DNA of 36,126 bases from a bacterium (GCA_043717115.1 JAYSXQ010000040.1:1-36126); one strand, 5' to 3'. Positions 6,989-24,761 are shown, counted from the first letter of the stretch. The notes: a model not told the origin generated them from the letters alone. A program made the numbers and translations.

Positions 6989-7528
6989 TTAACCTTTTCC
7001 GTATCCGCGAGTTTTTTTAAACACAACTTGGGGACCCAAGTTGACGGTTGCAGAGATTTTTGACACAGAATTACCGATGATCTGTGCGAGTCGTAAAGGA
7101 CTTTCTCCTTTATAAACTGGTTGCGACATTAGGTCGCATACAGTCGTAGGATCGCGCCCCACAGTCGGTAGAATGTAGCACTCGTAAGTGAACACCGCCT
7201 CCTCTGTTACGAAGTAAGAGTCTAAAAATACTTTCTTCCCCTTTTTTTGCTCAAAGAATATTATGCTTGCCGTAGACCCTTTTTTATAAGGATCGGTTGT
7301 GATATTAATCATTTGCCCACTCTCGAGAGGTGTCGTAAACGACAACTCTTCTTCTCCTGTGACGACCAGCAGGTCGTCACAGGCTTGGGTGAATGGTATC
7401 ACTCGGCCATCTTGGCACTGTTTTGCTTCCATATGAGACAATACAGGCGAGGAACTCTCAGCATTGACAGCAGTCGCTGAAAATAGACCTACAAAAACTG
7501 TAGCCATCGAGATTGAAAAAAACTTCAT
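6989..7528 (-). CDS. Secreted hypothetical protein (179 aa), compositionally atypical
   Basis: Signal peptide MKFFSISMATVFVGLFSATAVNA-ES. No family recognised. Spot G+C counts are 26/60 (line 7081) and 34/60 (line 7141), against roughly a third or less in neighbouring genes. Confidence 0.7.
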   Translation of the reverse strand: MKFFSISMATVFVGLFSATAVNAESSSPVLSHMEAKQCQDGRVIPFTQACDDLLVVTGEEELSFTTPLESGQMINITTDPYKKGSTASIIFFEQKKGKKVFLDSYFVTEEAVFTYECYILPTVGRDPTTVCDLMSQPVYKGESPLRLAQIIGNSVSKISATVNLGPQVVFKKTRGYGKG

Positions 7529-7579
7529 TGTAATATCCTTTGATTACTACTAGAGACAACACGTCCTAGTCCTGTAAAG

Positions 7580-7608
7580 ACTATAACATATTGTATATAC
7601 TATGTCAA
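7580..7608 (-). promoter_or_regulatory. Near-consensus sigma70-type promoter for the 6989-7528 gene
   Basis: Minus strand reads TTGACA (7603-7608), a 17-nt spacer, then TGtTATAGT (-10 at 7580-7585). A leader of about 45 nt follows, with AAAGGA 7 nt before the ATG at 7528. Confidence 0.55.
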
Positions 7609-8549
7609 GCACTAATTTTTGTGATGTACCCATGCTTAAAGTCTAGCCAGCTCATCTGATCTTTCCCTTCTGGTGTCAGAGTAACTATGAGTGTATCTAA
7701 ATTATCTGCATTTAGGTTAATTTTATTTATTTTTATACGTAAAGTTTTATCTAGATGTGTGTGAAAGAAAAATACTCCAGGCCACGGTGTCAATGCACGG
7801 TATTTGTTTTTAATAGTGTTTATTTTTTCTATTAGCATCTCATCGTTGTCGGTATCGCTTGGTAAAAATACTTCACCTTGAGACTTTTCTATGAACTTAC
7901 AAATGGTAGCTTTTGTGTGGTCTTGGTCTTGTAGTTTTAAACTTCCGTCCATATAGTGAGGGATTATCTGTACTAGTAGTTCACCGCCAATTTGACCACA
8001 GACTTTTTCAAGTGAGCCATTGGTGTCAGTGTTTTGTATGTGAACTTTTTGTTTTACTAGTATAGGCCCATGATCCATTCCTGCGTCTAATTGTATAATG
8101 CTGACTGCAGTTTCTGTGAGGCCATCAAGTAGTGCTGACTGTATAGGTGATGGTCCACGATATAGCGGTAGATTAGACGGATGCACATTTATAAAACCAC
8201 GCTCTGGGACTTGTAACAGGTACTCTGGTATTATCTTTCCATAACTTGCAACTATTGCTAGGTCGTAATTTTCAAGTAGTGGAGAAGTGTCATCCAACGC
8301 TCCTAATTTTAAAGTTTCCGGTTGATATACTGCTATGTTTTTAGACTCACACCAAGTTTTTATAATTGGAGGAGTTAACACTTGATGTCTACCTATTTGC
8401 GAATCTGGTTTTGTAACTACTGTTTTTGGTATGATGCCAGATACATATAGTGTGTATAAAACACTTTCTGCCAGTGGTCCTGTACCAAAAAATATTATTT
8501 TCTTTTCTCCCAGTTTTTCTTGTATCTTTTCTTTTAATTTGTCTTTCAT
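7605..8549 (-). CDS. fmt: Methionyl-tRNA formyltransferase
   Basis: IIFFGTGPLAESVL N-terminus and HPSNLPLYRGPSPIQSALLDG motif. The track ORF extends to 8630 and overlaps def. The internal ATG at 8549 (MKDKLKEK) removes the overlap. Confidence 0.9.
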   Translation of the reverse strand: MKDKLKEKIQEKLGEKKIIFFGTGPLAESVLYTLYVSGIIPKTVVTKPDSQIGRHQVLTPPIIKTWCESKNIAVYQPETLKLGALDDTSPLLENYDLAIVASYGKIIPEYLLQVPERGFINVHPSNLPLYRGPSPIQSALLDGLTETAVSIIQLDAGMDHGPILVKQKVHIQNTDTNGSLEKVCGQIGGELLVQIIPHYMDGSLKLQDQDHTKATICKFIEKSQGEVFLPSDTDNDEMLIEKINTIKNKYRALTPWPGVFFFHTHLDKTLRIKINKINLNADNLDTLIVTLTPEGKDQMSWLDFKHGYITKISA

Positions 8550-8562
8550 ATATTTTAAATAC

Positions 8563-9084
8563 TTAATAGTTTTCTTTTGGGTGATCAGGATCATCACGAA
8601 AATCAAAACCATGGTCAGTAAATAGCACACCGTCCAAATGGTCTATCTCATGCTGTATGATGTGCGCCACTAGTCCACCTGCACCATAACTAAACACGTT
8701 TCCATGCTCATCATATGCTTTTACAGTGACGTTCGTTGCGCGCCAAGTGTTTCCGTATATACCACGCACAGACAAACACCCCTCGTCTTTTATCTCTTGT
8801 TTATTAGAAGTTTTTGTAATTGTAGGGTTTATAAAAACAGAAGGTCTCCACATAGCGTCATTTTTATAGCCTCTAGTTTCGTCTATGACAAATATCCTTT
8901 TATTTATGCCGATCTGTGGCGCAGCTAGTGCCACACCGTCGGACTCACGGTGGGCTATTTCTTTCATTTGAAATATCATCTTCTTTAGCTCTTCAGATCC
9001 AAATTCACTTTTTGATACAGGTGCCGATATGGCGCGTAGTATAGTGTCTCCCTCCTTGGTATGTGTTTGTACTAGCTTATACAT
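8563..9084 (-). CDS. def: Peptide deformylase
   Basis: The three PDF motifs are present: GVALAAPQIG, EGCLSV and HEIDHLDG. Confidence 0.93.
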   Translation of the reverse strand: MYKLVQTHTKEGDTILRAISAPVSKSEFGSEELKKMIFQMKEIAHRESDGVALAAPQIGINKRIFVIDETRGYKNDAMWRPSVFINPTITKTSNKQEIKDEGCLSVRGIYGNTWRATNVTVKAYDEHGNVFSYGAGGLVAHIIQHEIDHLDGVLFTDHGFDFRDDPDHPKENY

Positions 9085-9129
9085 GTTGACATTTTAGCAT
9101 ACATTAAACACCTTTTAAAGAGTCTTATT

Positions 9130-11070
9130 TTAAAGTCTAAAAAGAAACTCTGGATTAACTTGCAAGTTATATGTATTGAGGTTTAGTCTACACATGTCAC
9201 GCAGAACATTATCAGTTTCCCAAGTTTTTGAGTCTACAAATGCTATGGTCCTATATATTTTCTGTATACGTATAGTATAGTGTGTGTAATGCGTCAAAAA
9301 AGTCGGGGTTTTAATCTCAAACTCTGTATCGTATGTGATCACTGTAGTATATGGTGGTAAGTGCATTTGCTTTCTAGTACAAAGCTCATTTTCTAATGCT
9401 TCGCGTACAGACTTTTGGGTTATAAAGTCAAAAACTTTTTCTTTGTTTCTGGTCTGTAGTATGAGAGGGTACTTTATAGAATCCTTTATTTTCTCTTCCA
9501 GATTATGTATTATATAAAAAACATGTGCGTCCATGTTGTACTCTGGTATTGCAAATAGAGAATCTATACTTATAATTGCCATCAAGTCTATATCATTTGC
9601 TAATGGTAGCAACAACTCAGTTCCTATCAGAATGCTAGTTTTTTCTTTCGAAGACTCTAAAAACATATTGTATATTTTTATTGCTGATTTTTTAGTTTTA
9701 GCATGTTCTGTGTCTAATACAAAAACCGGAGTGTTTGGATACAGTTTTTGTATTTCATTTTTCAGCCCATTAGTACCTATACCTAGTGTCTCCATACGCC
9801 AGCTACCACACTTAACGCATAGCAATTCTTTTTCTTTATTTACAGTCTCATGAGTTTTACAATTTTGGCACACGTAGCTTCTTTCTTCTGTTCCATTTTT
9901 ATTTACAATATAAAGTACCAGCGGGCGTTCACAAGTTACACATTTTTTTATCTCACCACAGTCAGCGCAGACGCTAGTTGTGTGTGACCCTTTTCTTTGT
10001 GTATATAGTAATATTTTTCTACCTGTCTCTTCTTTATCTACTCCAGCCCCATCTTTTATTAGTCTCTGTATATTTTTATTTAACTCTCTAGATATGTATA
10101 TATTTTTCTCTTTTTTATCTTCAGTATTCATTTTTATTATGTTCACAGACACTTTTCTATCAATGTTTACTATTTCATCTCTCTTTCCATTAACTTTGTT
10201 TTTGACGACCTTATTCTCACTATCTGTAGACAATAGTTTTTTTATAGATAAGTATCTATTTACCGACGGCACACTGTCTACTATGGTTACAGAGATATTT
10301 AAATCTAAACAAAAACTACTAATTAGTGTATTCATGTTTATGTGAGTAAAATTATTATAATAGTAACGTGAAGAGTCATTATATAAAAATACTTGCCCAG
10401 TATTTTTGTCAGCTAAAAATATAACACTCGGAGTAGTGATTAGTAATTTTACAGTATCAGATGTTAGGCTTTCAGCAGAGACTATCTTTTTTTTAATAGT
10501 CTCTTCGCCGTGATACTTTATAGTAGGAACGAGATTTTTAAAATGCTTGTACATTTTCTCAACTTGCAAAACTGTAGGACATATAATGGTTACGCTAGCT
10601 CCAGAGTTTATATTTTCTGTTATATTTTTTTCTAGAAATTCTATTTGTTTTTTATTGTCTGTATATATAAAAGAGGCTTCATTTTTATCAGTTTTTTCAT
10701 TCAACCTCTCATTTAATTTTGATGGTGAAAATTGTAACTTATCTAAAAAAATGTTTGGTACTATGCTGTCTATTATATGCGCCAGACTCGCTCCCTGTAG
10801 ACCGGACTCATGTTCTAGTGTATACAGTACCGGTTTTGGTATACAGCTTGCTCTGAGTATCTTATTGATTTTCCTTATCGCGTAGTCACGTTTTTTGATT
10901 TCCTGTTTTAGTACACGCACATCGTCTATATGTATGACTATGCCCTCCAGCACTCTAGACTGTATCTGCACCTCTACTAGGTCACCCACAGTAATAGGTA
11001 GACTGGTATAGTAACTCAGCGTCTCTATATTTTTATGTACTCCTATTATTGATACTGTGGCTATTACCAT
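9130..11070 (-). CDS. priA: Primosomal protein N' (PriA) homolog with degenerate helicase motifs
   Basis: N-terminal 3'-DNA-binding-like region (LSYYTSLPITVGDLVEVQ...EGIV). Four CxxC pairs of the PriA zinc-binding insertion (CADCG..CVTC ... CQNC ... CVKCGS). GIGTNGL and ILIGTELL motifs. Conserved priA-def-fmt order. I cannot find a Walker A GxGKT, a DExH box or a GRAGR motif. Confidence 0.8.
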   Translation of the reverse strand: MVIATVSIIGVHKNIETLSYYTSLPITVGDLVEVQIQSRVLEGIVIHIDDVRVLKQEIKKRDYAIRKINKILRASCIPKPVLYTLEHESGLQGASLAHIIDSIVPNIFLDKLQFSPSKLNERLNEKTDKNEASFIYTDNKKQIEFLEKNITENINSGASVTIICPTVLQVEKMYKHFKNLVPTIKYHGEETIKKKIVSAESLTSDTVKLLITTPSVIFLADKNTGQVFLYNDSSRYYYNNFTHINMNTLISSFCLDLNISVTIVDSVPSVNRYLSIKKLLSTDSENKVVKNKVNGKRDEIVNIDRKVSVNIIKMNTEDKKEKNIYISRELNKNIQRLIKDGAGVDKEETGRKILLYTQRKGSHTTSVCADCGEIKKCVTCERPLVLYIVNKNGTEERSYVCQNCKTHETVNKEKELLCVKCGSWRMETLGIGTNGLKNEIQKLYPNTPVFVLDTEHAKTKKSAIKIYNMFLESSKEKTSILIGTELLLPLANDIDLMAIISIDSLFAIPEYNMDAHVFYIIHNLEEKIKDSIKYPLILQTRNKEKVFDFITQKSVREALENELCTRKQMHLPPYTTVITYDTEFEIKTPTFLTHYTHYTIRIQKIYRTIAFVDSKTWETDNVLRDMCRLNLNTYNLQVNPEFLFRL

Positions 11071-11170
11071 ATATCAAGTATACAAGCATTTGACAGATAA
11101 TGTAACTGTAGATTTTATTTTGTTTTTATTGTATAATCTATACAAATATATACAAAATGTATACAATAAT

Positions 11171-12043
11171 ATGAAAACAAGAGTGCTGCTATTTTATAAA
11201 TACGTGACTGTTGAAAACCCAAGTGTTGTTATGGAGCGGGAGAGATGCGTATGTAATGTGCTAGGACTAAAAGGGCGTATTATAGTTGCAAATGAAGGTA
11301 TAAACGGAACAGTGGAGGGTAGTCTGGAGGAAACAGAAAAATATATAGCGCACCTTAGAAGTGACAAGCGTTTTCGTGACATGTACATAAAAGAGTCAAT
11401 TGGCGATGGTAAAGCCTTTCCGAGATTGTCTATAAAAGTAAAACCAGAAATAGTTTCTACAAAGTTTTCGTCTGATATAGACCCACGTAAAAAAACTGGC
11501 AAATATTTACAGCCACATGATTTAAAAAGAATGTACCAGAACAATGATGATTTTATAGTGATAGATATGAGAAATGAGTTCGAGATTGCCAGTGGGTATT
11601 TTAAAAACACCGTGAATCCAGGACTGACTACTTCACGTGATCTTGCAAAAACAGATGTAATAGAAAAACTTAAAATACATCGTGATAAAAAAGTCGTCAC
11701 TGTATGTACCGGAGGAGTTAGATGTGAAAAAATGTCGGCTTTTTTAATTGATCAGGGATTTACAAATGTTCACCAGCTGCACAATGGTATGCATGGGTAT
11801 ATGGAAAAGTACCCAGGTGAGGACTTTTTGGGAACGCTGTATACATTTGATGATCGCAAGGTTATGGATTTTGGTGGTGATCGTACTGTTGTAGGCAGAT
11901 GCGGTACCTGCGGTACCGCATCTGAAAAATACGAAAATTGTGCTAACATGAAGTGTCACGATAATTTTATAACATGTAGTGCATGTATGGAAAAGTATGG
12001 GGGTGTGGCATACTGTAGTGATGTCTGCAAAGAGGGCTATTAG
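11171..12043 (+). CDS. trhO: Rhodanese-domain protein of the UPF0176/TrhO (YceA) family, a putative tRNA U34 hydroxylase
   Basis: LLFYKYVTVENP...GRIIVANEGINGTVEG N-terminal domain. Rhodanese active-site loop CTGGVRCEK. Cys-rich C-terminus. The track start at 11057 overlaps priA; the ATG at 11171 (MKTRVLLFYKY) fits the family N-terminus. Confidence 0.85.
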   Translation: MKTRVLLFYKYVTVENPSVVMERERCVCNVLGLKGRIIVANEGINGTVEGSLEETEKYIAHLRSDKRFRDMYIKESIGDGKAFPRLSIKVKPEIVSTKFSSDIDPRKKTGKYLQPHDLKRMYQNNDDFIVIDMRNEFEIASGYFKNTVNPGLTTSRDLAKTDVIEKLKIHRDKKVVTVCTGGVRCEKMSAFLIDQGFTNVHQLHNGMHGYMEKYPGEDFLGTLYTFDDRKVMDFGGDRTVVGRCGTCGTASEKYENCANMKCHDNFITCSACMEKYGGVAYCSDVCKEGY

Positions 12044-12050
12044 CTAATTT

Positions 12051-12068
12051 GATCCCGCTATGGTCCAC
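12051..12068 (+). repeat. 18-bp exact copy of the 3' end of tRNA-Ala (T-arm/acceptor segment)
   Basis: GATCCCGCTATGGTCCAC at 12051-12068 is identical to 13143-13160 inside the tRNA gene. Same orientation, 1092 bp apart. Confidence 0.9.
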
Positions 12069-12072
12069 AAAT

Positions 12073-12099
12073 AAAATAAAAATATTTGAATAGAAAAAT
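12073..12099 (+). repeat. 27-bp direct repeat, copy 1, immediately upstream of the VanY-like start codon
   Basis: AAAATAAAAATATTTGAATAGAAAAAT at 12073-12099 is identical to 12988-13014. Confidence 0.9.
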
Positions 12100-13008
12100 A
12101 TGCAATTAAAGTATTTAGAAAATAGAAAAAATAAAGTATTTTTTACAGTAATTATCCTACTGTTAATTCTATGCTCTTATTTTATTTACATAAGTACAGA
12201 ATACAAAAAACAAAATCAGCAATTTGTGATAGACAGAAATGATCTAAAAATAAAACTAGATGAACTAAATAAAAAGTATACAGAAATAGTAAATCAATTA
12301 GAAATAAGTCAAGCTGATAAAACAATGCTGACTCAGAGCTTTGATCAAGTTGGTAGTCAGTATAACAGTCTAATGCAAGAATACACAGTCAAATCTGTAG
12401 AGGTAGACAAGTTGCAAAAAACTGTACAGATAGATGATGAGTTGCTAAAAAAATATTCAAAATATTATTTTCTAAATGAAAACTACGTACCTGCATCTAC
12501 TACTTTAGTAGATATTAATTTAACTTTAAATAATAAAAATATACTAATTTTGAGCGAAGTAAAATCTAAACTTGAAAATATGATCAATGCTGCAAAAACA
12601 CAAAGTGTAAATATCATAGTGTATTCTGGGTACAGGTCATTCAAAGAGCAACTCTCACTCAAAAGTGCTTATACTCAAAAGTTCGGGCTATCAAAATCAA
12701 ATCAGTTTTCCGCAGATCAGGGATATAGCGAGCATCAACTCGGGACTGCGGTTGATGTTAGTGATGGAAAGACAGGACTATCTACAGGTTTTGAAAAAAC
12801 TGCAAGTTTTATATGGCTACAAGATAATGCTTACAAATACGGGTTTATACTATCATACCCCAAAAACAATTCTTATTATCAATATGAGCCATGGCACTAT
12901 AGATACGTAGGTGTAGAGCTGGCAACGTATCTCAAAACAAACGATTTAAATTTTTACGATTTAGATCAAAAAATAATAGATGCGTACAAAATAAAAATAT
13001 TTGAATAG
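12100..13008 (+). CDS. VanY-like D-alanyl-D-alanine carboxypeptidase (peptidase M15B), membrane-anchored
   Basis: N-terminal TM helix and coiled-coil-like linker. M15 zinc/catalytic motifs SGYRSFKEQ, SEHQLGTAVD and EPWHYRYVG. Confidence 0.88.
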   Translation: MQLKYLENRKNKVFFTVIILLLILCSYFIYISTEYKKQNQQFVIDRNDLKIKLDELNKKYTEIVNQLEISQADKTMLTQSFDQVGSQYNSLMQEYTVKSVEVDKLQKTVQIDDELLKKYSKYYFLNENYVPASTTLVDINLTLNNKNILILSEVKSKLENMINAAKTQSVNIIVYSGYRSFKEQLSLKSAYTQKFGLSKSNQFSADQGYSEHQLGTAVDVSDGKTGLSTGFEKTASFIWLQDNAYKYGFILSYPKNNSYYQYEPWHYRYVGVELATYLKTNDLNFYDLDQKIIDAYKIKIFE

Positions 13009-13014
13009 AAAAAT
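12988..13014 (+). repeat. 27-bp direct repeat, copy 2, covering the last 6 codons and stop of the VanY-like gene
   Basis: Identical to 12073-12099. Encodes ...KIKIFE-stop. Confidence 0.9.
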
Positions 13015-13015
13015 T

Positions 13016-13043
13016 AAAAACTTCACAATTGTGAAGTTTTTTT
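13016..13043 (+). terminator. Rho-independent terminator after the VanY-like gene
   Basis: AAAAACTTCAC-AATT-GTGAAGTTTTTTT: hairpin followed by a T-run. Confidence 0.7.
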
Positions 13044-13051
13044 GTTATACT
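13043..13051 (+). promoter_or_regulatory. Extended -10 TGTTATACT upstream of tRNA-Ala
   Basis: TG at 13043-13044 and TATACT at 13046-13051. This predicts a pre-tRNA leader of about 29 nt. Confidence 0.4.
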
Positions 13052-13086
13052 ACTAAAGTCTACGCAAAAAGACCAAAAGAAAAATA

Positions 13087-13162
13087 GGGCCATTAGCTCA
13101 TTTGGTAGAGCGCATCCATGGCATGGATGAGGTGAGCGGTTCGATCCCGCTATGGTCCACCA
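13087..13162 (+). tRNA. tRNA-Ala (anticodon GGC), CCA encoded
   Basis: Manual cloverleaf: acceptor GGGCCAT/ATGGTCC with the G3:U70 alanine identity pair, D stem GCTC/GAGC, anticodon stem CATCC/GGATG, loop AUGGCAU, T stem AGCGG/CCGCT with TTCGATC loop, discriminator A plus CCA. Length 76 nt. Confidence 0.93.
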
Positions 13163-13165
13163 GAG

Positions 13166-13209
13166 AACACGGATTAAAAATACCCAAAAAGATATTTTTA
13201 ATCCGTGTT
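13166..13209. terminator. 17-bp perfect inverted repeat (hairpin) directly after the tRNA
   Basis: AACACGGATTAAAAATA (13166-13182) and TATTTTTAATCCGTGTT (13193-13209) with a 10-nt loop. Likely a tRNA terminator; it also marks the left edge of the G+C-rich island. Confidence 0.6.
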
Positions 13210-13220
13210 GCATAATGTCG

Positions 13221-13229
13221 TGTTATAAT
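13221..13229 (+). promoter_or_regulatory. Extended -10 TGTTATAAT; predicted TSS at the ATG at 13236 (leaderless)
   Basis: TG at 13221-13222 and TATAAT at 13224-13229. The ATG lies 7 nt after the hexamer. Confidence 0.45.
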
Positions 13230-13235
13230 AAAAAT

Positions 13236-13757
13236 ATGAAAATATGGTTATTTCTTTTGGCAACACTTATGTTGCAGGAACTCTTTTCTTCCGCGGCAGT
13301 ATTGACACCTCTGTATGCTGCACATTACAGTACCTGGCTAATACATCTCACCTTCATTATCGCCACAATACTTGATATCTCCATAGGATACTATGTCGGT
13401 AGTTATATCAAGAGGAATGCTTCATCTAATCGCTTTGTTACCTTTATACAGAAAAAGGCTGCACGGTATCAGTTTCTTTCTAGACGGACTCCACGAAGAC
13501 GTCTAGCATTATTTGTATTCGGTCCTCCGCTATTCCCTATTACTGCATTCTTTGCACCACTTATCGGCTTCTCATTCTATGAAAGCTTCTCTATCCTTCT
13601 CCTCGGGGAAATCACGTTCTGGTATGGTCCCGAATGGCTCTTAATACTTGGAATGCACACGTTTTTAGGTAGTCATCTATGGATGATAAGTATCATACTG
13701 GTACTTATCTTTTGGGTATATCCTCTATTTAAGGACAGTTCTTTTTTTCGGAAGTAA
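13236..13757 (+). CDS. Small polytopic membrane protein of unknown family
   Basis: About 173 aa with 4-5 hydrophobic helices. The track ORF start at 13152 lies inside the tRNA, so I use the ATG at 13236 (MKIWLFLLATLML). Spot G+C is 27/60 (line 13441). Confidence 0.65.
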   Translation: MKIWLFLLATLMLQELFSSAAVLTPLYAAHYSTWLIHLTFIIATILDISIGYYVGSYIKRNASSNRFVTFIQKKAARYQFLSRRTPRRRLALFVFGPPLFPITAFFAPLIGFSFYESFSILLLGEITFWYGPEWLLILGMHTFLGSHLWMISIILVLIFWVYPLFKDSSFFRK

Positions 13758-14882
13758 TGGGTAGAATGTTTGTGCCCAGAAGCCAGATGGAAGTTCTTCA
13801 TTATCCAAACCATAGGTATCGGGCCATTTTTCTTTTGGGAAGTAGTAAGTGCTAAAGATTTTATCTATCCATGGAAAATGAATGGCAAAATTTTTATCGA
13901 TGGCATCTTTTTGTGAGGCGTGATGCCAATGATGGAAACGCGGTTGAACAATATATGGTTCCAACCATTTTATAGCCGGACGAAAATTACAATGTGCCCA
14001 AGTTGCATGTATGGTAACCCAAAATAGATATGCCACTATGATGCCATGGGGAAATATAAACATCATCGGGACCAACATGAATCCTCGTACTACTACGTCT
14101 TCTACAATGTGTGCACGTGAGCCTGCTATCCAATCAAGAGCCTTCGAAGAATGGTGAATGGCATGGAATTTCCACATAAATGGCACTGTATGAAATATTC
14201 GATGTACAAAATATTGACTGAGATCCGCTACAAAAATAGCAAGCAAGATTTGCACAAGCCAAGGTAGACTTCCTATCGCCGCCAGTACACTTGGTATCCC
14301 TAGATATGTTGAAAGCTGGGTTGCAGGCAGTAGGATAAGAAAAGAGGTAATTTGGATTGGTAAGTGTGTCGCTAAGAAGTAGCCAATATCTAGCAGCCAT
14401 TCTTTTCTAAAAACTTTCTGCTTTGGATATGCAGGCCAAAGAACTTCTATTGGAGAAAAAATTAGTGTCATAAGCAATATATCAAGCAAGAACCAATCTA
14501 GTCCAATAGATGGACCATTCTGAAGGTGTTCGTTGATTGGAACACTTGACCCACCGAGTATACTTGCTGCGAGAGTGAAGATCATTCCAGTGAGAGCTAG
14601 AACTTTCTTCTTGCGTAACATTGCGGAGATGACCCCAAACACTATTGAACCCAACATGACTATCTGGATCAATGGTCGAATGATGTCCATGTCATAGTAT
14701 TGTCGTAACTCAGGAGAAGTAAGAATTTGTGGAAAGTGGAGACATATCACCGCACCGAATGCGAGTATTCCGAAGAATGCTGATAATATTCCACTCCACC
14801 AACCTGATCCAAAATTAGTTGAATCATCATCTCCAAATACTTCATGAATTTTTTCTTCGAGCATATGAAAAAAGTATATCAT
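13725..14882 (-). CDS. Fatty acid hydroxylase / sterol desaturase family membrane protein (di-iron His-box enzyme)
   Basis: His boxes HRIFH, HAIHHSS and HHWHH in the C-terminal half. Multi-TM N-terminal half. Spot G+C is 28/60 (line 14101). The 3' end overlaps the convergent upstream gene by 33 bp. An alternative start lies at 14864. Confidence 0.8.
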   Translation of the reverse strand: MIYFFHMLEEKIHEVFGDDDSTNFGSGWWSGILSAFFGILAFGAVICLHFPQILTSPELRQYYDMDIIRPLIQIVMLGSIVFGVISAMLRKKKVLALTGMIFTLAASILGGSSVPINEHLQNGPSIGLDWFLLDILLMTLIFSPIEVLWPAYPKQKVFRKEWLLDIGYFLATHLPIQITSFLILLPATQLSTYLGIPSVLAAIGSLPWLVQILLAIFVADLSQYFVHRIFHTVPFMWKFHAIHHSSKALDWIAGSRAHIVEDVVVRGFMLVPMMFIFPHGIIVAYLFWVTIHATWAHCNFRPAIKWLEPYIVQPRFHHWHHASQKDAIDKNFAIHFPWIDKIFSTYYFPKEKWPDTYGLDNEELPSGFWAQTFYPLLPKKRTVLK

Positions 14883-14957
14883 GTATTAAAAAAATATGAA
14901 ATTAAGTACAGGATAAAATTGAATAGTTATTTATTCTTTAAATGAACACACTTAAAC

Positions 14958-14982
14958 AAAAAAACCACTCACAAGGAGTGGT
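14958..14982 (-). terminator. Rho-independent terminator of the desaturase gene
   Basis: Minus strand reads CCACTC-CTTGT-GAGTGG followed by TTTTTTT, 8 nt after the TAA at 14990-14992. Confidence 0.7.
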
Positions 14983-14989
14983 CTTGACT

Positions 14990-15847
14990 TTAGAAGCCAA
15001 GATTTTTGAGCGGCACATCCTCCGGGATTCTCATCCCGGTCTCGGTTGCCTTCACCAGCCCAATAGACTTCATCACCTTTACAGTCAGGAATCCGAAGTC
15101 GTATTCGGAATCGTTATGACTGAGGCGTAGCATGCCAGCGGCATGGTGGTGATTATTCTGCCAACATGCACTGAAGGTTGCGGTCACAGGAAGCCATTCC
15201 CCGACGTTTTCGGCCTTGTCATCATCGCCGGGATAGCGTCGATGTCCGAACCCAGGTGTGTGCGTCCAGTAGTTTTGGATCATGTTGACCCAGAGTGCGA
15301 AGACACGTATACCGATCCACATCACCAGTGCAAATGTTAAGCTACGCGCGACCAAGTACAAGAGCCAGAAGCTAAAGATCTGTGCCGGAATGGCATAGAA
15401 CATGCTATTAGCAACTCGGAATGTCCGAGATTGCAGAATCTTGTCGTTTGCCACGTTCTCTTTGCAAGGATATGGAAATAGGCACAGATAAAGTGTCTTC
15501 CAGAACCCGTCGCTTGCAAGCTTGTTCGGATCACCTTCGTGATCCGAGTATCGATGATGTAGTCGATGGCGGTTTACCCACTCGAGTCCATTTACGTAAA
15601 TCGCAAACGTATTGTTTACGACCGTGACCAGCTTGGCGAACCACTCCTTGAACTCGAGCGAACGATGGGCAATCCCTAGGTGCAGGACATCTGCCATATA
15701 AAGTCCGCCCATGAGCCAGATGAAGATGAAGTATGCGGCTCCGATAAGGAGCCCATTCCAAAGCCCCAACTCTGACGGCGCAAAAATTCCGCAGGCAAAG
15801 AAATAGGCAAGGATAATCGAGTAGCCGTACATGTTGTACGATTTCAT
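14990..15847 (-). CDS. Acyl-CoA/acyl-lipid Delta9-type fatty acid desaturase
   Basis: Three His boxes in canonical order: HLGIAH(RS), HRLHHRYSDHEGDP and WQNNHHH. Four hydrophobic spans. GGAGGT SD at 15857-15862. Spot G+C is 28/60 and 32/60 (lines 15541 and 15601). Confidence 0.85.
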   Translation of the reverse strand: MKSYNMYGYSIILAYFFACGIFAPSELGLWNGLLIGAAYFIFIWLMGGLYMADVLHLGIAHRSLEFKEWFAKLVTVVNNTFAIYVNGLEWVNRHRLHHRYSDHEGDPNKLASDGFWKTLYLCLFPYPCKENVANDKILQSRTFRVANSMFYAIPAQIFSFWLLYLVARSLTFALVMWIGIRVFALWVNMIQNYWTHTPGFGHRRYPGDDDKAENVGEWLPVTATFSACWQNNHHHAAGMLRLSHNDSEYDFGFLTVKVMKSIGLVKATETGMRIPEDVPLKNLGF

Positions 15848-16054
15848 AGTACTAATACCTCCAATGGTAATGTGTCAAAGGAAAAAACTCCAGAGCTTAG
15901 TATAACACAGGTTATCACTTTTGTCTATTTTTTATAGCATTATTGATTCTAAAATAGATATTCTAACTCCTTTACAATTTGGTTCAGAAAAACATTATCG
16001 AAGTCCACTGATATTGTAGTTGATAAATTATTAAAATAAGAATACTATATAAAT

Positions 16055-16741
16055 ATGAAAAACTCACAAAAAAGTTTTGCAAATATTGTTTTACTAGCGT
16101 TAGTAGTTATTCTCGCTGGAGCTATTGGATATTTCTTGTCAGTGACAATAAAGAATCCTCCAGCAGCCGTACCAGTAACACCTTTTTTATCAACAGATAA
16201 AAAGAGTATAAGTACTGATAGTAAAATCTTGTTAGTTATTGACAATGATACAATTTTTAATTGGTTTAAAACCAAAAGCCAGTTGTGTGACGGATATAAC
16301 TTAACCAGTAGTCCTGATCGTAAGATGTTTTGCGAAAACAAAACATCTTTTAAGAGCCAAACTAGATTTACTTCAATCGTTATTTCTCCCGATAAAATGA
16401 AAATTGGTTTTACTATAGAAAGTGATACATTATCTCCTGATAAAGTCGTCGGTGTTTTTTCACTCTCTACTAATTCAGTTAACTTGCTGGGTAGTTACTA
16501 TCTTGGAAACGAGTTTATTAGTTTTTCTCCAAATGGTATAAATTTTGTTTACAAAGGTGATTGCTTTGAGGGAATGTGTGGACTATATGTAAAAAATTCG
16601 GAAACACTTACCGATAAAACTAGTCTAAGTGATTCAGAGTTTGCTGATGCCAGAACCAGAACTGCTACTTTTGTAAAATGGTTATCGGATAATGAGATAG
16701 AGTATAAACTCGGCACAGAATTAAAACGAATATCATTTTAA
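16055..16741 (+). CDS. Membrane-anchored hypothetical protein (228 aa), possibly with PD40/TolB-like beta-strand repeats
   Basis: N-terminal TM anchor (IVLLALVVILAGAIGYFL). SPDK.../SPNG... repeat-like segments. A TACTAT -10-like box at 16043-16048 puts the TSS at the ATG. Function not recognised. Confidence 0.65.
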   Translation: MKNSQKSFANIVLLALVVILAGAIGYFLSVTIKNPPAAVPVTPFLSTDKKSISTDSKILLVIDNDTIFNWFKTKSQLCDGYNLTSSPDRKMFCENKTSFKSQTRFTSIVISPDKMKIGFTIESDTLSPDKVVGVFSLSTNSVNLLGSYYLGNEFISFSPNGINFVYKGDCFEGMCGLYVKNSETLTDKTSLSDSEFADARTRTATFVKWLSDNEIEYKLGTELKRISF

Positions 16742-16760
16742 TTCTAAATTTTAATCTTTA

Positions 16761-16779
16761 AAAATAAAACACACCCAAT
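16761..16779 (+). repeat. 19-nt direct repeat, copy 1 (left arm of the terminator hairpin)
   Basis: AAAATAAAACACACCCAAT at 16761-16779 is identical to 18227-18245. Confidence 0.9.
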
Positions 16780-16791
16780 GAAGGTGTGTTT
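16767..16791 (+). terminator. Hairpin terminator after the 16055-16741 gene
   Basis: AAACACACC-CAATGAA-GGTGTGTTT followed by an AT-rich tail. Confidence 0.6.
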
Positions 16792-16980
16792 ATATTTAAC
16801 TTTTGACTATTTTATGTTATTATATACATGTAGAAGGTGGGTTAAAAAATACCAATCAAAATGCTTATATTTTCAATATAGAACGAGTCGAGTGCGGAGT
16901 TAATGCTGTAGAATTGGTAAAGTTTGCGAAGGTTTATAAAAAAGATATTAAACACTTTATTAAAATAGTAACATAAATTT

Positions 16981-17673
16981 ATGTTTTGGAATAAAAAAAT
17001 TAAAATCGAGGAAACTGATTTAGATTCAGCTATGATCGAGCTTGGGCGAGAAATCGAAAGAGGTCTTTTACTTTTAGGTGCGGTTGTTCAGCAACATTGG
17101 ACAACAGAAGAAGAGGAAAATGATTATAATAAAGCCGTATCAGTCACTATGAATATGATTCTAAATGATAAAACATTGACTGATATGGATAGACTGGAAA
17201 AAGCAAAATATATACTCGATTTGTCAAAGGTGTATAGAAAATTTATAGACGCTTCGTCATCTAAATATGGGGATTTTATTCTTTCCAGACTAAATCAGTT
17301 TGAGCAGATGTTAGAACCACTACCAAAAATAAAGTCGCATGAAAAAGTTGAGGAGTGGATAAAGCTTACTAGTGAGTTGTGTAAAATACGTGCTGACGAA
17401 ATTAATGCTATTGAAGCCCGTATAGAACTCGACAATTTTATACCAAAGCTTGTTATTAGAGATGAGGGAAATTCAGAACAGAATATGACGGAAGAAGAAG
17501 GAAATCAATTTGCACATCTAGTCGCCACTTACGGCTCTAAACGACAGCTTGCTTATGAAGCCGAAAAGAAAATTGAGCCGATGAGATCAAATCTAGCTGA
17601 AAGTATGTTTGGAAAACTTAACGAGTATATGAAAGATGGTAGTTACTCCAGGTTACTAATAATGAAACCTTAA
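16981..17673 (+). CDS. Hypothetical acidic, predicted all-helical protein (230 aa); first gene of the cassette
   Basis: Long ORF in native-like AT-rich codon usage. Its stop is 10 nt before the next start. No motif I recognise: no nucleotidyltransferase GS..D.D, no HTH signature. Confidence 0.7.
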   Translation: MFWNKKIKIEETDLDSAMIELGREIERGLLLLGAVVQQHWTTEEEENDYNKAVSVTMNMILNDKTLTDMDRLEKAKYILDLSKVYRKFIDASSSKYGDFILSRLNQFEQMLEPLPKIKSHEKVEEWIKLTSELCKIRADEINAIEARIELDNFIPKLVIRDEGNSEQNMTEEEGNQFAHLVATYGSKRQLAYEAEKKIEPMRSNLAESMFGKLNEYMKDGSYSRLLIMKP

Positions 17674-17683
17674 ATTAAGGAGA

Positions 17684-18142
17684 ATGAATCAACTAATTAA
17701 AAAAGAGAGAATACCTATTCAGTCGATTTTATTTTCTTTAACTGAATGTTTAGATGCGTTAGTTGCGTTAGATGAGGTGAATAGACTTCATACACAAATT
17801 CCTATAATGAATCTTCTGGAAAGAGAAAGTTTAAATTTTCGTCCAGAAATCATGGTTACTTTAGTTAGTGTGACAAGAGATTGTTTTTGTATTCGCATAG
17901 CAAATCTTTTTGATAATCGTAAAGATACTCACTCATTAAAAAAATATTTTCATGGTGATACTGTTGATAAACTAGAAAAACATCCTATAACGGTTGCGGC
18001 CATTAAGGCACGACACAACAACATTGCGCACATGGGGAAAGCGTATACAAAATGGCCTGAGATAGATGCTATTCTCGTCGCGACTGATTTGAGAGATTTA
18101 TTGGAGAGTATCAGAATTGGTATTTCGATAAATCGTCAGTAG
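17684..18142 (+). CDS. HEPN-like (AbiU2/Abi-type) putative RNase toxin, 152 aa
   Basis: Predicted helical. R-x5-H motif R110-HNNIA-H116 (nt 18011-18031) with a polar residue after the Arg and AH at the end, as in many HEPN families. It sits in the C-terminal third, as expected. The assignment rests on motif and size only. Confidence 0.45.
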   Translation: MNQLIKKERIPIQSILFSLTECLDALVALDEVNRLHTQIPIMNLLERESLNFRPEIMVTLVSVTRDCFCIRIANLFDNRKDTHSLKKYFHGDTVDKLEKHPITVAAIKARHNNIAHMGKAYTKWPEIDAILVATDLRDLLESIRIGISINRQ

Positions 18143-18226
18143 GAGCAATCTTTGACGTTTTATAATATCTCCTAGCGCTACGCGCGTTCGTAGTAGATTC
18201 GAGCAAATGCTAGAATAACACCACCA

Positions 18227-18245
18227 AAAATAAAACACACCCAAT
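18227..18245 (+). repeat. 19-nt direct repeat, copy 2
   Basis: Identical to 16761-16779. Confidence 0.9.
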
Positions 18246-18260
18246 AGGGTGTGTTTTATT
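18229..18260. terminator. Bidirectional terminator with a 14-bp perfect stem
   Basis: AATAAAACACACCC-AATA-GGGTGTGTTTTATT between convergent genes ending at 18142 and 18297. Confidence 0.75.
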
Positions 18261-18296
18261 AAATGCTATAGTTTTATATTAGCACTAAGTTTGAAA

Positions 18297-18812
18297 CTAC
18301 TTCATAATGTAATGTCTCACGTCTACTGCGCCGTGATTTAAAAATATGTCTTCAGTGCTAGCAGGAGTACCACGTGATATTATCAAAATATCGCCACGTC
18401 TCACATGGTCCTCGTACATGTGAACGTCAGCTTCGTCTACTCCTAGATTAATTAATCCTCCTATCATACCACCAGCCACTGCACCACCAGCTGCACCTGC
18501 TACTGCAGTTGCTGCTGTAGCACCTATGCCTAATGCAGCTGCTAATGGTCCTGCGACTAGCACAGTACCAAAACCAGGTAAAACTACATTAGCGACTACG
18601 AGTCCTGCTAGACCTCCTATTATTGCTCCTGCTGTAGCTCCTGTTGCTGCTGCTCCGCCTACCTTTTCGCCAGTTTGGCCGTCTTTTATATTACCTTTTT
18701 CATTGGTATATACATAAGATAGATCAGTTTCGTTCACTCCAAACTCTTTTAATTCGTTAAGAGCGCTTTCTGCTGCTGTGTGAGTAGTAAATACTCCTAT
18801 GGTTGTTATCAT
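18297..18812 (-). CDS. YflT-like general stress domain protein with a central glycine-zipper membrane segment
   Basis: N-terminus MITTIGVFTTHTAAESALNELKEFGVNETDLSYVY resembles the general stress protein 17M/YflT domain. Central region is a GxxxG/Ala-rich run (GGAAATGATAGAIIGGLAGLVV...). Confidence 0.6.
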   Translation of the reverse strand: MITTIGVFTTHTAAESALNELKEFGVNETDLSYVYTNEKGNIKDGQTGEKVGGAAATGATAGAIIGGLAGLVVANVVLPGFGTVLVAGPLAAALGIGATAATAVAGAAGGAVAGGMIGGLINLGVDEADVHMYEDHVRRGDILIISRGTPASTEDIFLNHGAVDVRHYIMK

Positions 18813-18936
18813 ATTTTTTTATTATCCAAGTTTTAACCTATTTTTACATCTAGGAGCTTGCATACATATCATGACGTTTGGTTTCGATATATCTTACAAG
18901 ACTTGCTTTTGATACATTTTATGTTGTTTATAAATA

Positions 18937-18945
18937 TGTTATAAT
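18937..18945 (+). promoter_or_regulatory. Extended -10 TGTTATAAT; predicted TSS at the ATG at 18952 (leaderless)
   Basis: TG at 18937-18938 and TATAAT at 18940-18945. The ATG lies 7 nt after the hexamer. Confidence 0.45.
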
Positions 18946-18951
18946 CAACTC

Positions 18952-19467
18952 ATGAACAATTACACATATATACAAACAGTCATACTAGGTGGACTTAAAA
19001 ACTTGGTAGTTATACTGCAAAAAGGTAAAGCTCACACCGAGTCAGCAGGTATGTCCGAGGCTGATCTTATGAACGCCACTCTCTACGATGACATGTTGCC
19101 ATTTGCAAAGCAGATACAGATTGCATCTGACAATGCAAAGGGTGGTATGGCAAAACTATCGGGGACGACCGCTCCAGTGATGGAGGATACTGAGACTACT
19201 TTTGATGAGTTGATTTCTCGTGTGCAGAAAACTATCGACTACGTTGGTACGTTCACAGCAGACAGTTTTGTTGATGCTGAAAATGTACAGATCACTTTTC
19301 CTTGGATGCCAGGCAAATACATCAGTGCTACTGATTATATTAATGACTTCTTGTTGAACAATTTTTTCTTTCACACAGTCACAGCATATGACATACTACG
19401 CCACAAAGGTGTAATGATAGGCAAGTCCGACTACATAGGTGCAATGAATATGAAGGATGTCGCGTAG
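18952..19467 (+). CDS. DUF1993-family (DinB-like helical bundle) protein
   Basis: Characteristic LYDDMLPFAKQIQIASDNAK, ED.E.TF.EL and LLNNFFFHTVTAYDILRHKGVMIGKSDYIG segments. Confidence 0.7.
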   Translation: MNNYTYIQTVILGGLKNLVVILQKGKAHTESAGMSEADLMNATLYDDMLPFAKQIQIASDNAKGGMAKLSGTTAPVMEDTETTFDELISRVQKTIDYVGTFTADSFVDAENVQITFPWMPGKYISATDYINDFLLNNFFFHTVTAYDILRHKGVMIGKSDYIGAMNMKDVA

Positions 19468-19500
19468 TTATACAAGTTTATTTAAATAAAATTTTCAGTT

Positions 19501-20262
19501 ATGCACGCGCTTGAAATAAAAAACGTAAAGAAAACATATGATACAGGTAAACACGCATTAAAAGGTGTGGACCTGGTTGTGGAGGCGGGGGATGTGTTCG
19601 CATTGCTCGGGCCAAATGGAGCTGGGAAAAGCACATTGATTAATTGCACTGTGGGACTGGTAAAAAAAACCTCGGGGTCTATAGAGGTGTTCGGTGTATC
19701 TATTGATGAGGATCATGTCACCACTAAATCAAATATCGGTATAGTCCCTCAAGAGTTCAATTTTAATATTTTTGAAAAGGTTATAGACATAGTGGTCACT
19801 CAGGCAGGGTATTATGGTGTACCGAGGAAAATTGCTACAGAAAGAGCCGAGGTGATACTCAAAAAATTAGACTTGTGGGAGAAACGTAATGCAAAGTCTA
19901 TGACTCTGTCCGGTGGTATGAAAAGACGCCTGATGATAGCTCGCGCTCTAGTGCATCAGCCAAAATTGTTAATACTTGACGAGCCTACAGCAGGAGTGGA
20001 TGTAGAGCTGCGCCACGGTATGTGGACTTTTCTACGTGAATTAAATGCTAGCGGCACAACCATCATCATGACTACCCACTACTTAAAAGAGGCAGAGGAA
20101 CTGTGTAACAAGGTAGCTATGATACGTGACGGCGAGATAGTTTTAAATGGCGATATGAAAAACATACTGAATAAATACGGTACAGATCTAGAAAGTATAT
20201 ACCTAAAAGAAATGTCTAGCGCAGAAAATAAAACTGTAGATATCAAAACAGAAAATAAATAA
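19501..20262 (+). CDS. ABC transporter ATP-binding protein (ABC-2 exporter type)
   Basis: Walker A GPNGAGKST, signature LSGGMKRR, Walker B LLILDEPTAGVD, and H-loop TTHY. Confidence 0.92.
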   Translation: MHALEIKNVKKTYDTGKHALKGVDLVVEAGDVFALLGPNGAGKSTLINCTVGLVKKTSGSIEVFGVSIDEDHVTTKSNIGIVPQEFNFNIFEKVIDIVVTQAGYYGVPRKIATERAEVILKKLDLWEKRNAKSMTLSGGMKRRLMIARALVHQPKLLILDEPTAGVDVELRHGMWTFLRELNASGTTIIMTTHYLKEAEELCNKVAMIRDGEIVLNGDMKNILNKYGTDLESIYLKEMSSAENKTVDIKTENK

Positions 20263-20265
20263 AAT

Positions 20266-21060
20266 ATGAAAAAAATAATTTCAAATAAAAACTTGCGTAT
20301 ACAAATAGTAGCTATACAGACTATATTATCAAAAGATCTGGTGCGTATGTTTCGTATCTGGCCACAGACATTTTTACCATCAGTAGTCACTACGGCATTA
20401 TACTTTTTAATATTTGGTAAATTCATAGGGTCACAGATACAAAGTGTGGGAGGTGTCAGTTATATGCAGTTCATAGTGCCAGGTCTGGTGATGATGGCTG
20501 TGATAACCAACGCATTTGCAAACACAGTGTTTGCATTTTTCGGCGCAAAGTTTCAAAAGACACTAGAGGAGCTACTGGTCGCGCCTGTCTCATATACAGC
20601 GATGATATCAGGCTATGTTTTTGGTGGGGTTGCGCGAGGGTTTTTAGTTGGTACCATGACCCTCGTTACAGCTCTATTTTTCACACCTCTCTCTATTGCG
20701 CACATTGGCTGGGTTATATTTTTTGCTGTTATGTCTAGTGTAGTGTTCTCATTAGCTGGACTAGTTAACGGTGTATATGCAAAGACTTTTGATCAAACGT
20801 CTCTTGTCACTACATTTGTATTAGTCCCTATGACGTATCTGGGCGGCGTGTTTTATAGTGTAAAGTTACTACCAGAAATATGGCAACAGGTATCCTATTT
20901 TAATCCAGTATTGTATATTGTGAATGGATTTAGATATGGTTTCTTGGGAACTTCAGATATTAATATATGGTACTCTGCAGCTACTGTCACTGGTCTCGCT
21001 GTCGTATTTTTTATATGGGCTATATATCTATTTTCAAGTGGCAGAGCGATAAAGATGTAG
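20266..21060 (+). CDS. ABC-2 type transporter permease
   Basis: Six hydrophobic spans, 264 aa. Starts 4 nt after the ATPase stop. Confidence 0.85.
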   Translation: MKKIISNKNLRIQIVAIQTILSKDLVRMFRIWPQTFLPSVVTTALYFLIFGKFIGSQIQSVGGVSYMQFIVPGLVMMAVITNAFANTVFAFFGAKFQKTLEELLVAPVSYTAMISGYVFGGVARGFLVGTMTLVTALFFTPLSIAHIGWVIFFAVMSSVVFSLAGLVNGVYAKTFDQTSLVTTFVLVPMTYLGGVFYSVKLLPEIWQQVSYFNPVLYIVNGFRYGFLGTSDINIWYSAATVTGLAVVFFIWAIYLFSSGRAIKM

Positions 21061-21085
21061 ACATACTTATACAAACTGTCAATCG

Positions 21086-21114
21086 TTGCAATATTACAAT
21101 AATAAGAGTAGTAT
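21086..21114 (+). promoter_or_regulatory. Candidate promoter TTGCAA-17-TAGTAT for the adhesin gene
   Basis: TTGCAA at 21086-21091, a 17-nt spacer, and TAGTAT at 21109-21114. Predicted TSS is about 21121, which favours the ATG at 21126. Confidence 0.35.
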
Positions 21115-21125
21115 TAATGGAAATT

Positions 21126-24754: not shown

Positions 24755-24761
24755 ATTTTAC

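Follow-up and report, generated by a model that had tools for sequence, protein, structure and literature searches.

A probably acquired pair of oxygen-dependent lipid-enzyme genes joined to a native membrane gene in a Paceibacteria-like bacterium

Background

Two adjacent genes predicted to encode oxygen-dependent lipid-modifying membrane enzymes, a fatty-acid desaturase-like protein and a member of the fatty-acid-hydroxylase/sterol-desaturase superfamily, lie on a bacterial contig of 36,126 nucleotides (GCA_043717115.1, JAYSXQ010000040.1:1-36126; 'the window' in what follows means the whole of this stretch). The contig is assigned below to the Candidate Phyla Radiation (CPR), or Patescibacteria. 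Members of this group have been portrayed as having no lipid synthesis of their own and as fermenters, mostly anaerobic, that reuse the lipids of their hosts.

The closest described counterparts of the first enzyme are integral-membrane stearoyl-CoA and acyl-lipid Delta9 desaturases, namely mammalian SCD1 (structures 4YMK, 4ZYO and 6WF2) and cyanobacterial DesC. Enzymes of this type bind a di-iron centre through histidine boxes (HX3-4H, HX2-3HH, (H/Q)X2-3HH), and the SCD-like fold comprises four transmembrane helices and a cytosolic cap. The second carries a PF04116 domain, which is found in O2-dependent di-iron membrane enzymes spanning sterol desaturases, carotene hydroxylases and OlsE (PMC12971839). 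Horizontal gene transfer into CPR bacteria, including that of lipid-related genes, is already documented, as are oxygen-related genes in these bacteria. A survey of 125 patescibacterial genomes described hundreds of islands and single transferred genes, mostly passed between Patescibacteria and in some cases received from donors of other phyla; in one example a lysophospholipase passed from Pseudomonadota to Paceibacteria and was read as aiding lipid scavenging (mSystems 2025, PMC12455944). Aerobic traits have also been gained laterally (PMC7304191). The case described here fits the pattern of that survey (PMC12455944) and differs from it in its cargo (O2-dependent lipid-modifying enzymes instead of a lipase), in a junction located at the nucleotide level and in two apparent gene sources. 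A literature search found no report tying fatty-acid desaturases or hydroxylases to CPR genomes; the matches concerned carotenoid desaturases or auxiliary metabolic genes of phages.

Results and discussion

A two-gene segment joined to the end of a native gene

The reading that we favour, and consider probable, is that a Paceibacteria bacterium acquired a two-gene cassette of about 2.2 kb horizontally, by illegitimate recombination. The cassette would have been inserted at the 3' end of a small native membrane gene (MEMB) that happens to follow a tRNA-Ala gene. The features concerned are listed below, with positions counted from the first letter of the window.

13087-13162, plus strand: tRNA-Ala(GGC) (ARAGORN; Rfam, 57 bits)
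13236-13757, plus strand: MEMB, a polytopic membrane protein of 173 amino acids (aa) (open reading frame (ORF) call)
13756-13759, no strand: left boundary of the acquired DNA against native sequence, at the MEMB stop codon TAA 13755-13757 (four-way alignment)
13725-14864 (to 14882), minus strand: hydroxylase, a fatty-acid-hydroxylase/sterol-desaturase superfamily enzyme of 379 aa (385 aa from the upstream ATG)
14873-14900, minus strand: promoter-like site TTCATA-16-TATACT with TG, upstream of the hydroxylase (consensus match only)
14961-14985, minus strand: intrinsic-terminator-like hairpin and T-run, directly after the desaturase stop (terminator scan)
14990-15847, minus strand: desaturase, a membrane di-iron enzyme with an SCD fold, 285 aa (PF00487; AlphaFold2 (AF2) model and Foldseek)
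15848-15941, minus strand: desaturase 5' region, with a Shine-Dalgarno (SD) sequence GGAGG at 15859-15863 and a promoter-like TAGACA-17-TATACT at 15927-15899

The loci and contigs compared are denoted by L-numbers. One of them, L142 (a 1458-bp contig from another run), has a tRNA-Ala (TGC), then the MEMB gene (88% amino-acid identity; 86% DNA identity to window positions 13222-13758), then unrelated sequence, and no hydroxylase. The match to L142 extends as far as 13758, and from the other side the hydroxylase genes of L057 and L056 align down to 13756. Because L142 keeps both the tRNA and MEMB and the homology breaks at the MEMB stop, these two genes are best read as native. The last ten codons of the hydroxylase (LLPKKRTVLK*, 13725-13757) are the antisense of the MEMB 3' end and replace the native end of the family, which is FRQKKAPPVV* in L057. 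At the right edge, near 15941, homology to L004 (GCA_043779085.1, contig JAYWEY010000035.1) covers the desaturase, the terminator spacer 14870-14981 and 94 bp upstream; the desaturase 5' region to 15941 has 79% DNA identity to L004, and so has the spacer, which holds the hydroxylase promoter-like site. The acquired segment would therefore run from about 13758 to 15941 and contain two genes only.

No integrase or recombinase is present in any window ORF of at least 100 aa, and no att-like repeat of the tRNA 3' end occurs in 12900-16300, where only short A/T-rich chance matches were seen; the initial annotation had likewise noticed neither. A tblastn search of 72,556 plasmids and 50,697 phage genomes with the desaturase gave no match, and IMG/VR gave a single partial match (50 residues, 41%); no carrier element was identified in these searches. 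Since the breakpoint cuts into a cargo gene and coincides with the stop codon of a native one, the insertion is attributed to illegitimate recombination and not to site-specific integration, with the tRNA-Ala as native flank.

Beyond MEMB, L142 carries a 72-aa ORF and a GC-rich tail. This tail (L142:1250-1458, about 270 bp past the MEMB stop) has about 53% G+C and is unrelated to the window. The same site may thus hold different foreign DNA in different strains.

Host and assembly

The window has a mean G+C of 36.2% and a single tRNA, the tRNA-Ala(GGC) (ARAGORN and Rfam). Its remaining genes are housekeeping genes: DnaE, Ddl, Fmt, Def, PriA-like, TrhO, SerRS, HisRS, Dus, HolB, Pth and TsaD. 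Because the best named relatives of the window SerRS are those of Candidatus Nomurabacteria/Paceibacterota (71-73% identity), the host is assigned to the CPR/Patescibacteria as a Paceibacteria- or Nomurabacteria-like bacterium, which bears out an earlier suspicion of a reduced CPR-like host.

The exact desaturase protein recurs on contigs assembled independently from three runs (SRR23617194, SRR22198330 and SRR23617193), and these three Logan assemblies are 100% identical to the window across 4990-17077, a region that includes both junctions. As three independent assemblies reproduce both junctions at 100%, the contig is judged not to be chimeric; the host-like codon composition of the hydroxylase and the fusion of its ORF to a native gene add to this.

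The desaturase

The histidine motifs named in the initial annotation (HLGIAH, HRLHHRYSD and NNHHH) are present in the product of 14990-15847(-). H56, H61, H94, H97, H98, H196, H233, H234 and H244 are all retained and are invariant in an alignment of 46 sequences that includes the window; an NX3H element (N192...H196) and the QNNHHH third box are invariant in the family. Most close homologues carry a precomputed PF00487 match, and JGI names among the homologues include 'sn-1 stearoyl-lipid 9-desaturase' and 'stearoyl-CoA desaturase'.

A fold search was required to settle the class of the enzyme because its sequence matches in the PDB are weak (17% identity to SCD1, E about 1e-3). The AF2 model has a pLDDT of 80 and a pTM of 0.82. 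With Foldseek it matches 4ZYO, 6WF2 and 4YMK (TM 0.59-0.66, probability 1.0, E 2e-5 to 2e-4); only SCD structures match, the next E value being above 1. The likeness to SCD1 and DesC lies in the predicted whole-length fold, the HX4H (HLGIAH) and HX2HH (HRLHH) boxes and the NX3H element. The window enzyme differs in being shorter, in having Q-N-N-H-H-H instead of H-X2-H-H as its third box, and in its strict pairing with a PF04116 enzyme, for which there is no equivalent in SCD or DesC.

Two signals proposed earlier, a GGAGG SD and a terminator belonging to the desaturase itself, are both present, the SD 10 nt upstream of the ATG and the terminator as the hairpin at 14985-14961(-). Alignment of the window, L004, L057 and L006 (GCA_043742365.1) shows that the -35, -10, TAAG, ACCAC...GGAGG and ATGAAA elements of the desaturase leader are conserved.

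The hydroxylase

The hydroxylase start is probably M7 (14864), which the gene callers and all homologues use. PF04116 is matched at 97.4 bits (gathering score 31) over residues 213-345. The motifs HRIFH, HAIHHSS and HHWHH, as initially annotated, are found in the product of 13725-14882(-) and follow the pattern HX3H, HX2HH, HX2HH; across 42 family sequences there is no variation in HRIFH, HAIHH, HHWHH, H286 or H291, and the window retains all of them. The domain is preceded by some 200 residues of conserved, polytopic N-terminal sequence with GWWSG and CLHFP motifs and no Pfam match.

Among the homologues of the protein, P0141 and P0142 share 84-85% identity with it and a Burkholderiales protein shares 75%. 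Its best curated match is OlsE (NCBIfam NF052566, E=1e-24, residues 202-376). It shares with OlsE and the PF04116 superfamily a full-length PF04116 domain and the histidine motifs, and differs by the N-terminal extension and a sub-threshold OlsE score. Searches of the PDB by sequence and profile gave nothing, and no solved structure shows a detectable relationship to the protein, whether through its sequence or through the low-confidence model.

A conserved pair with two histories

Relatives of the desaturase at 66-71% identity are found in Acidoferrales/Terriglobales, Eisenbacteria, Hyphomicrobiales, Proteobacteria and other groups. Taken together, the two enzymes share 68-84% identity with their counterparts in Acidobacteriota, Pseudomonadota and Myxococcota, and the pair is 70-85% identical across these three phyla and the CPR. 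The homologues fall into 2037 database clusters for the desaturase and 3409 for the hydroxylase.

A hydroxylase homologue abuts the desaturase in 42 of the 53 other loci (40 convergent, tail-to-tail, and 2 in tandem), and five of the 11 desaturase loci without an adjacent hydroxylase are cut by a contig end. The pair is in tandem in the window and in L057 and convergent in nearly all other genomes. Neighbour clustering over 54 loci, the window included, gave no third conserved neighbour (a spurious antisense ORF only) and no conserved electron donor or regulator near the pair. These arrangements indicate that desaturase and hydroxylase form a module of two genes, complete in itself and frequent among bacteria of soil and fresh water.

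The genes most similar to those of the window come from other CPR-like contigs, namely L004, L057, L006 and L144. Identities to the window proteins are as follows.

L004: desaturase 80%
L057: desaturase 76%, hydroxylase 85%
L006: desaturase 73%, hydroxylase 71%

In bootstrapped neighbour-joining trees the CPR-like desaturases are monophyletic (500/500), and an eight-member clade was recovered in 180/200 replicates with 164 sequences. For the hydroxylase, the window groups with L057 and L056 (500/500) and then with L006 and Myxococcota (497/500), apart from Terriglobia. The L056 copy, 84% identical to that of the window, lies on a 66%-GC contig in a thrS-infC-rpmI-rplT-pheST context. This context is typical of Proteobacteria. 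The desaturase of L056 itself is placed elsewhere in the desaturase tree. The hydroxylase thus appears nearest to a proteobacterial-type lineage and, because the trees are discordant, the two genes are read as having different histories, with which the tandem arrangement (window and L057) as against the convergent one and the divergent codon composition also fit.

A horizontal origin of both enzymes is well supported: the closest relatives occur in other phyla, the trees disagree and the pair is absent at the site in the single short contig L142. The initial annotation had proposed a horizontally acquired lipid-remodelling capacity, and this stands for the two oxidases, which are foreign; MEMB, which it had included, is native.

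Base composition

G+C is 42.2% in 13163-15900 and 35.7% in the rest of the window. The region is close to the top sliding window of its size: 0.5% of windows equal or exceed it, all of them overlapping. The line counts on which a composition jump had first been proposed (12/60 at 12121, 20/60 at 16081) are correct, and the G+C maximum is real; the shift is not uniform and does not start at the tRNA. The desaturase is the only per-gene outlier (GC 50%; G+C at third codon positions (GC3) 0.61, z=+5 against 31 other genes; host mean GC3 0.29). The hydroxylase (GC 39.8%, GC3 0.34) and MEMB (GC3 0.385) are both within 1.5 standard deviations of the 31 other genes, and their synonymous-codon fit is among the four poorest in the window, that of MEMB being second-worst. 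The composition of the 'island' is essentially that of one gene, the desaturase.

In every CPR-like genome the desaturase has a GC3 0.15-0.35 above that of its neighbours, in copies that are from dS 0.9 to saturation apart, and the hydroxylase beside it is mostly ameliorated.

Window, 14990-15847: desaturase GC3 0.61, host mean 0.29
L004:9866-10723: desaturase 0.68, SerRS 0.41
L057:741-1598: desaturase 0.64, MEMB-like flank gene 0.28
L144:10001-10861: desaturase 0.79, flank genes 0.51-0.65
L147:1450-2307: desaturase 0.69, flank ORF 0.43
L006:10001-10858: position of the desaturase copy

Two possible explanations are that GC3 is under selection and that the gene has repeatedly been replaced by copies from a pool richer in GC.

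An ORF of 179 aa elsewhere in the window (6989-7528, minus strand, between PPIase and Fmt) has a G+C of 44%, a GC3 of 0.43 and the third-worst codon fit. It has no match in Pfam, NCBIfam or PADLOC and is possibly another foreign gene.

Selection and exchange among CPR lineages

Rates of synonymous (dS) and non-synonymous (dN) substitution are NG86 estimates.

MEMB, window and L142: dS 0.53, dN 0.06
Desaturase, window and L004: dS 0.94, dN 0.12
SerRS, window and L004: dS saturated, dN 0.33 (protein identity 62%)
SerRS, window and the closer sisters L058 and L060: dS 1.8-4.3, dN 0.16

Where a residue is conserved between the window and L004, the codon is identical at a frequency of 0.62 in the desaturase and 0.41 in SerRS, and the DNA identity of the desaturase is 79%, non-coding flanks included. 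As desaturase dS is 0.94 where SerRS of the same two genomes is saturated, the desaturase cassette appears to have been shared between divergent Paceibacteria more recently than their hosts split.

For both genes dN/dS is about 0.1. This, together with the retention of every family-invariant residue, indicates that the pair is functional and under purifying selection. The description of the locus as 'old or decayed' does not agree with these values, nor with the sharp junction, the relative at a dS of 0.53 for MEMB (nearer to the host than any of those Paceibacteria) that is without the insert at this site, or the conserved promoter, SD and terminator.

Weighing the alternatives

The initial annotation placed all three genes in an old, decayed island at the tRNA-Ala 3' end, with integrase and att sites eroded. 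The first of the three genes follows the tRNA at a distance of 73 nt, the G+C of the window peaks in 13163-15900, MEMB has a poor codon fit, the pair in L006 (tRNA-Gln) and in L056 (tRNA-Pro) has a tRNA gene no further than 0.75-1.5 kb away, and a MEMB homologue also flanks the pair in L057. A nearby tRNA, the atypical composition of the desaturase and absence from the site in a close relative are indeed features of classical tRNA-targeted islands. The window cassette differs from these in having no integrase, no att repeat, a native gene in between and a truncated cargo gene. L142 keeps tRNA-Ala and MEMB without the hydroxylase and breaks at the MEMB stop, MEMB intervenes between the tRNA and the breakpoint, and the genes are intact with low dN/dS; integration at the tRNA, with the membrane gene as cargo, is therefore very unlikely. 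Vertical inheritance of a pair ancestral to the patescibacterial lineage, its G+C excess being a gene-specific bias, is quite unlikely. It would accommodate the single clade formed by desaturases from at least five CPR-like contigs, the location of the L004 gene relative to SerRS (same side, at 7 kb as against 10 kb in the window), the pyrG-FtsX context common to L006 and L144 and the host-like codon composition of the hydroxylase. It does not sit well with cross-phylum identities far above those of housekeeping genes, with a CPR clade nested among Acidobacteriota and Proteobacteria and a hydroxylase that groups with a 66%-GC non-CPR contig, with the desaturase dS set against a saturated SerRS, with closer sisters (SerRS 78-79% identical) in which TrhO lies directly beside SerRS without this block, or with L142, where the pair is absent from the junction. 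The non-host GC3 of the desaturase and its closest named relatives in soil Acidobacteriota might also suggest an assembly or binning chimera, in which a CPR contig was linked to a piece of DNA from Acidobacteria or Proteobacteria. Given identical sequence over both junctions in independent assemblies from different runs, a hydroxylase GC3 of 0.34 where its 84%-identical homologue has 0.91, a hydroxylase ORF that runs into the antisense of a native gene, and the same cassette on the low-GC contigs L004 and L057, a chimera is extremely improbable.

A further alternative accepts the same acquisition and assigns another chemistry to it, acting on an ornithine or amino-lipid head group, a hopanoid or sterol-like triterpenoid, a carotenoid or a sphingolipid, or with the second enzyme being a desaturase. 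OlsE as best curated match of the hydroxylase, the 'lathosterol oxidase' label given by JGI to some of its homologues, the breadth of PF04116, the marginal PF00487 score of the desaturase, and a strict pairing across phyla that suggests a dedicated two-step product all speak for it. On the other side, the OlsE score is far below its cut-off, acyl-CoA desaturase (SCD1) structures are the sole significant PDB matches of the desaturase model, and a CPR cell without lipid biosynthesis would be likelier to hold common host glycerolipids. We regard another chemistry as rather unlikely.

Several points weigh against acquisition of an acyl-lipid desaturase and hydroxylase as we favour it. The empty site rests on one contig of 1458 bp, and the pair could lie further downstream there. 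The CPR status of L004 is deduced from a SerRS 58-64% identical to Paceibacteria sequences, and that of L006 and L144 solely from gene-dense, small-gene content. Sampling for the trees was limited and partly unlabelled; as regards donor phyla, the desaturase CPR clade is nearest to Terriglobia-type sequences with a support of only 233/500. A desaturase with a GC3 of 0.61 beside a hydroxylase with 0.34 is not accounted for by a single co-transfer. On the enzymes themselves, PF00487, the only Pfam match of the desaturase, is reached at 28.8 bits (0.9 below the gathering score of 29.7), and NCBIfam DesA at 30.7 against a cut-off of 400, so that the protein is not a DesA equivalog; the 'Delta9-type' of the initial annotation is not supported by these scores, and "Delta9" is an annotation habit and not a result. 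The hydroxylase fails the OlsE equivalog level (87.2 bits against a cut-off of 475, over the C-terminal 175 residues only), its AF2 model is poor (pLDDT 66 from the 42-sequence alignment) and gives only noise against the PDB with Foldseek (E>=0.4). Finally, no ferredoxin, flavodoxin or cytochrome b5 gene is present in the window.

Proposed function

For substrate, regiospecificity, electron donor and physiological role we infer the following. Both enzymes would be embedded in the membrane and use O2 and electrons from a soluble donor encoded elsewhere. The desaturase would form a double bond in acyl chains. Its partner would hydroxylate or further oxidise a lipid, probably the same one because the genes are so strictly paired. 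In this way an organism living on scavenged lipids could tune its membrane in a cold, oxic habitat.

Oxygen and habitat

The initial annotation contrasted O2-dependent enzymes with a largely anaerobic CPR host. This contrast is weakened: oxygen dependence is not paradoxical for the lineage, because relatives carry an Fe/Mn superoxide dismutase (SOD), a photolyase, an alternative oxidase and, in L006, a hemerythrin.

In two sister contigs (L058:7674-12549 and L060:12507-17429) Fe/Mn SOD, ClpB and DNA photolyase genes lie just downstream of SerRS, the SOD directly after SerRS in L058 and after two small ORFs in L060. SOD and photolyase are markers of an oxic, light-exposed lifestyle. At the SOD position the window has an ORF of 204 aa (27502-28116) that is unrelated to SOD. 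In L004 an alternative oxidase (L004:2821-3510; PF01786, 242 bits) and a DUF347 protein lie between SerRS and the desaturase; a quinol oxidase is unexpected in such a Paceibacteria-like genome.

A sister contig is labelled BUSI22, and several GTDB matches have 'GL..' names of metagenome-assembled genomes. These labels fit glacier-fed-stream metagenomes (PMC9021309, PMC12684718), which is a pointer to habitat and not a verified origin of the window.

Flanking genes and the surrounding region

Two further features adjoin the segment and its native flank.

13166-13209, plus strand: inverted repeat, 17 bp without mismatch around a 10-nt loop, immediately 3' of the tRNA (repeat search)
16055-16741, plus strand: hyp228, the right-flank gene, with an N-terminal transmembrane or pilin-like segment (ORF call)

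The inverted repeat looks like a terminator or processing hairpin. An Rfam scan of 12900-16400 found the tRNA only, and no riboswitch or leader.

The MEMB family is small, with 109 representatives among 1.84 billion in a full-library search. Seven of 42 members match the Pfam VTT_dom (PF09335; best E 4.7e-7) and four match Sm_multidrug_ex. The window MEMB itself has no Pfam match even at E<=10, and so differs from those relatives that link the family to DedA/VTT proteins. It is best regarded as a divergent member of a small VTT/DedA-like family, native to the host. A member of this family is found next to the lipid pair in each of two divergent hosts, on one side in the window (13236-13757, plus strand) and on the other in L057 (113-625, minus strand); the two members are 36% identical. 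This recurrence could be due to an insertion hot spot near the tRNA-Ala/MEMB gene or to a functional link to lipid handling.

On the right, hyp228 is AT-rich and host-like (GC3 0.24), has no significant match in Pfam, NCBIfam or PADLOC, and is likewise next to the desaturase in L002 and L003, which are independent assemblies. Three copies of an A/T-rich 18-mer (TATAATAAAAATATGAAA-like) are present, at 13224-13241, 14884-14901 and 16043-16060, and two of them span the ATG of plus-strand genes (MEMB and hyp228). It is probably a shared -10/start context of short-leader transcripts. Further right, an ORF of 152 aa (17684-18142, plus strand) has a weak Pfam match to HEPN_AbiU2 (E=0.006, below threshold) that PADLOC did not confirm.

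About 14 kb of accessory-looking genes (12100-26240) separate TrhO and SerRS in the window. The block comprises VanY, the tRNA-Ala, the VTT-like membrane gene, the lipid pair, three hypothetical genes, YflT, DUF1993, an ABC-2 transporter, a YDG/MBG surface protein of 1239 aa and a CAP-domain protein. Because TrhO directly adjoins SerRS in the sisters L058, L060 and L061 (SerRS 78-79% identical), the block looks like a variable region that contains the pair. A metagenome scan with the VanY neighbour gave 80 loci, all at <=54% identity, and in none of them was VanY followed by tRNA-Ala or by the pair. The VanY of other CPR bacteria adjoins HPF-Fmt-Def-PriA, and the scan was uninformative on the limits of the island.

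Implications

A wider scenario is possible, if doubtful: Paceibacteria of cold, oxic streams might trade a self-contained O2-dependent lipid-tailoring cassette drawn from two non-CPR sources, which would give these lipid-auxotrophic, supposedly fermentative episymbionts autonomous control of the unsaturation and hydroxylation of lipids obtained from their hosts. Given its identity across phyla, the pair may be a widespread, uncharacterised two-step system of lipid modification, and the MEMB-like neighbour might be linked to lipid flipping.

The locus provides a nucleotide-resolved case of gene gain by a reduced genome without mobile-element machinery. It also draws attention to a lipid-oxidase module of two genes that is very widespread and strongly conserved among soil bacteria. 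If the pair is indeed functional and selectively maintained, some CPR lineages would remodel their membranes with oxygen, a concrete adaptive trait for oxic, cold habitats.

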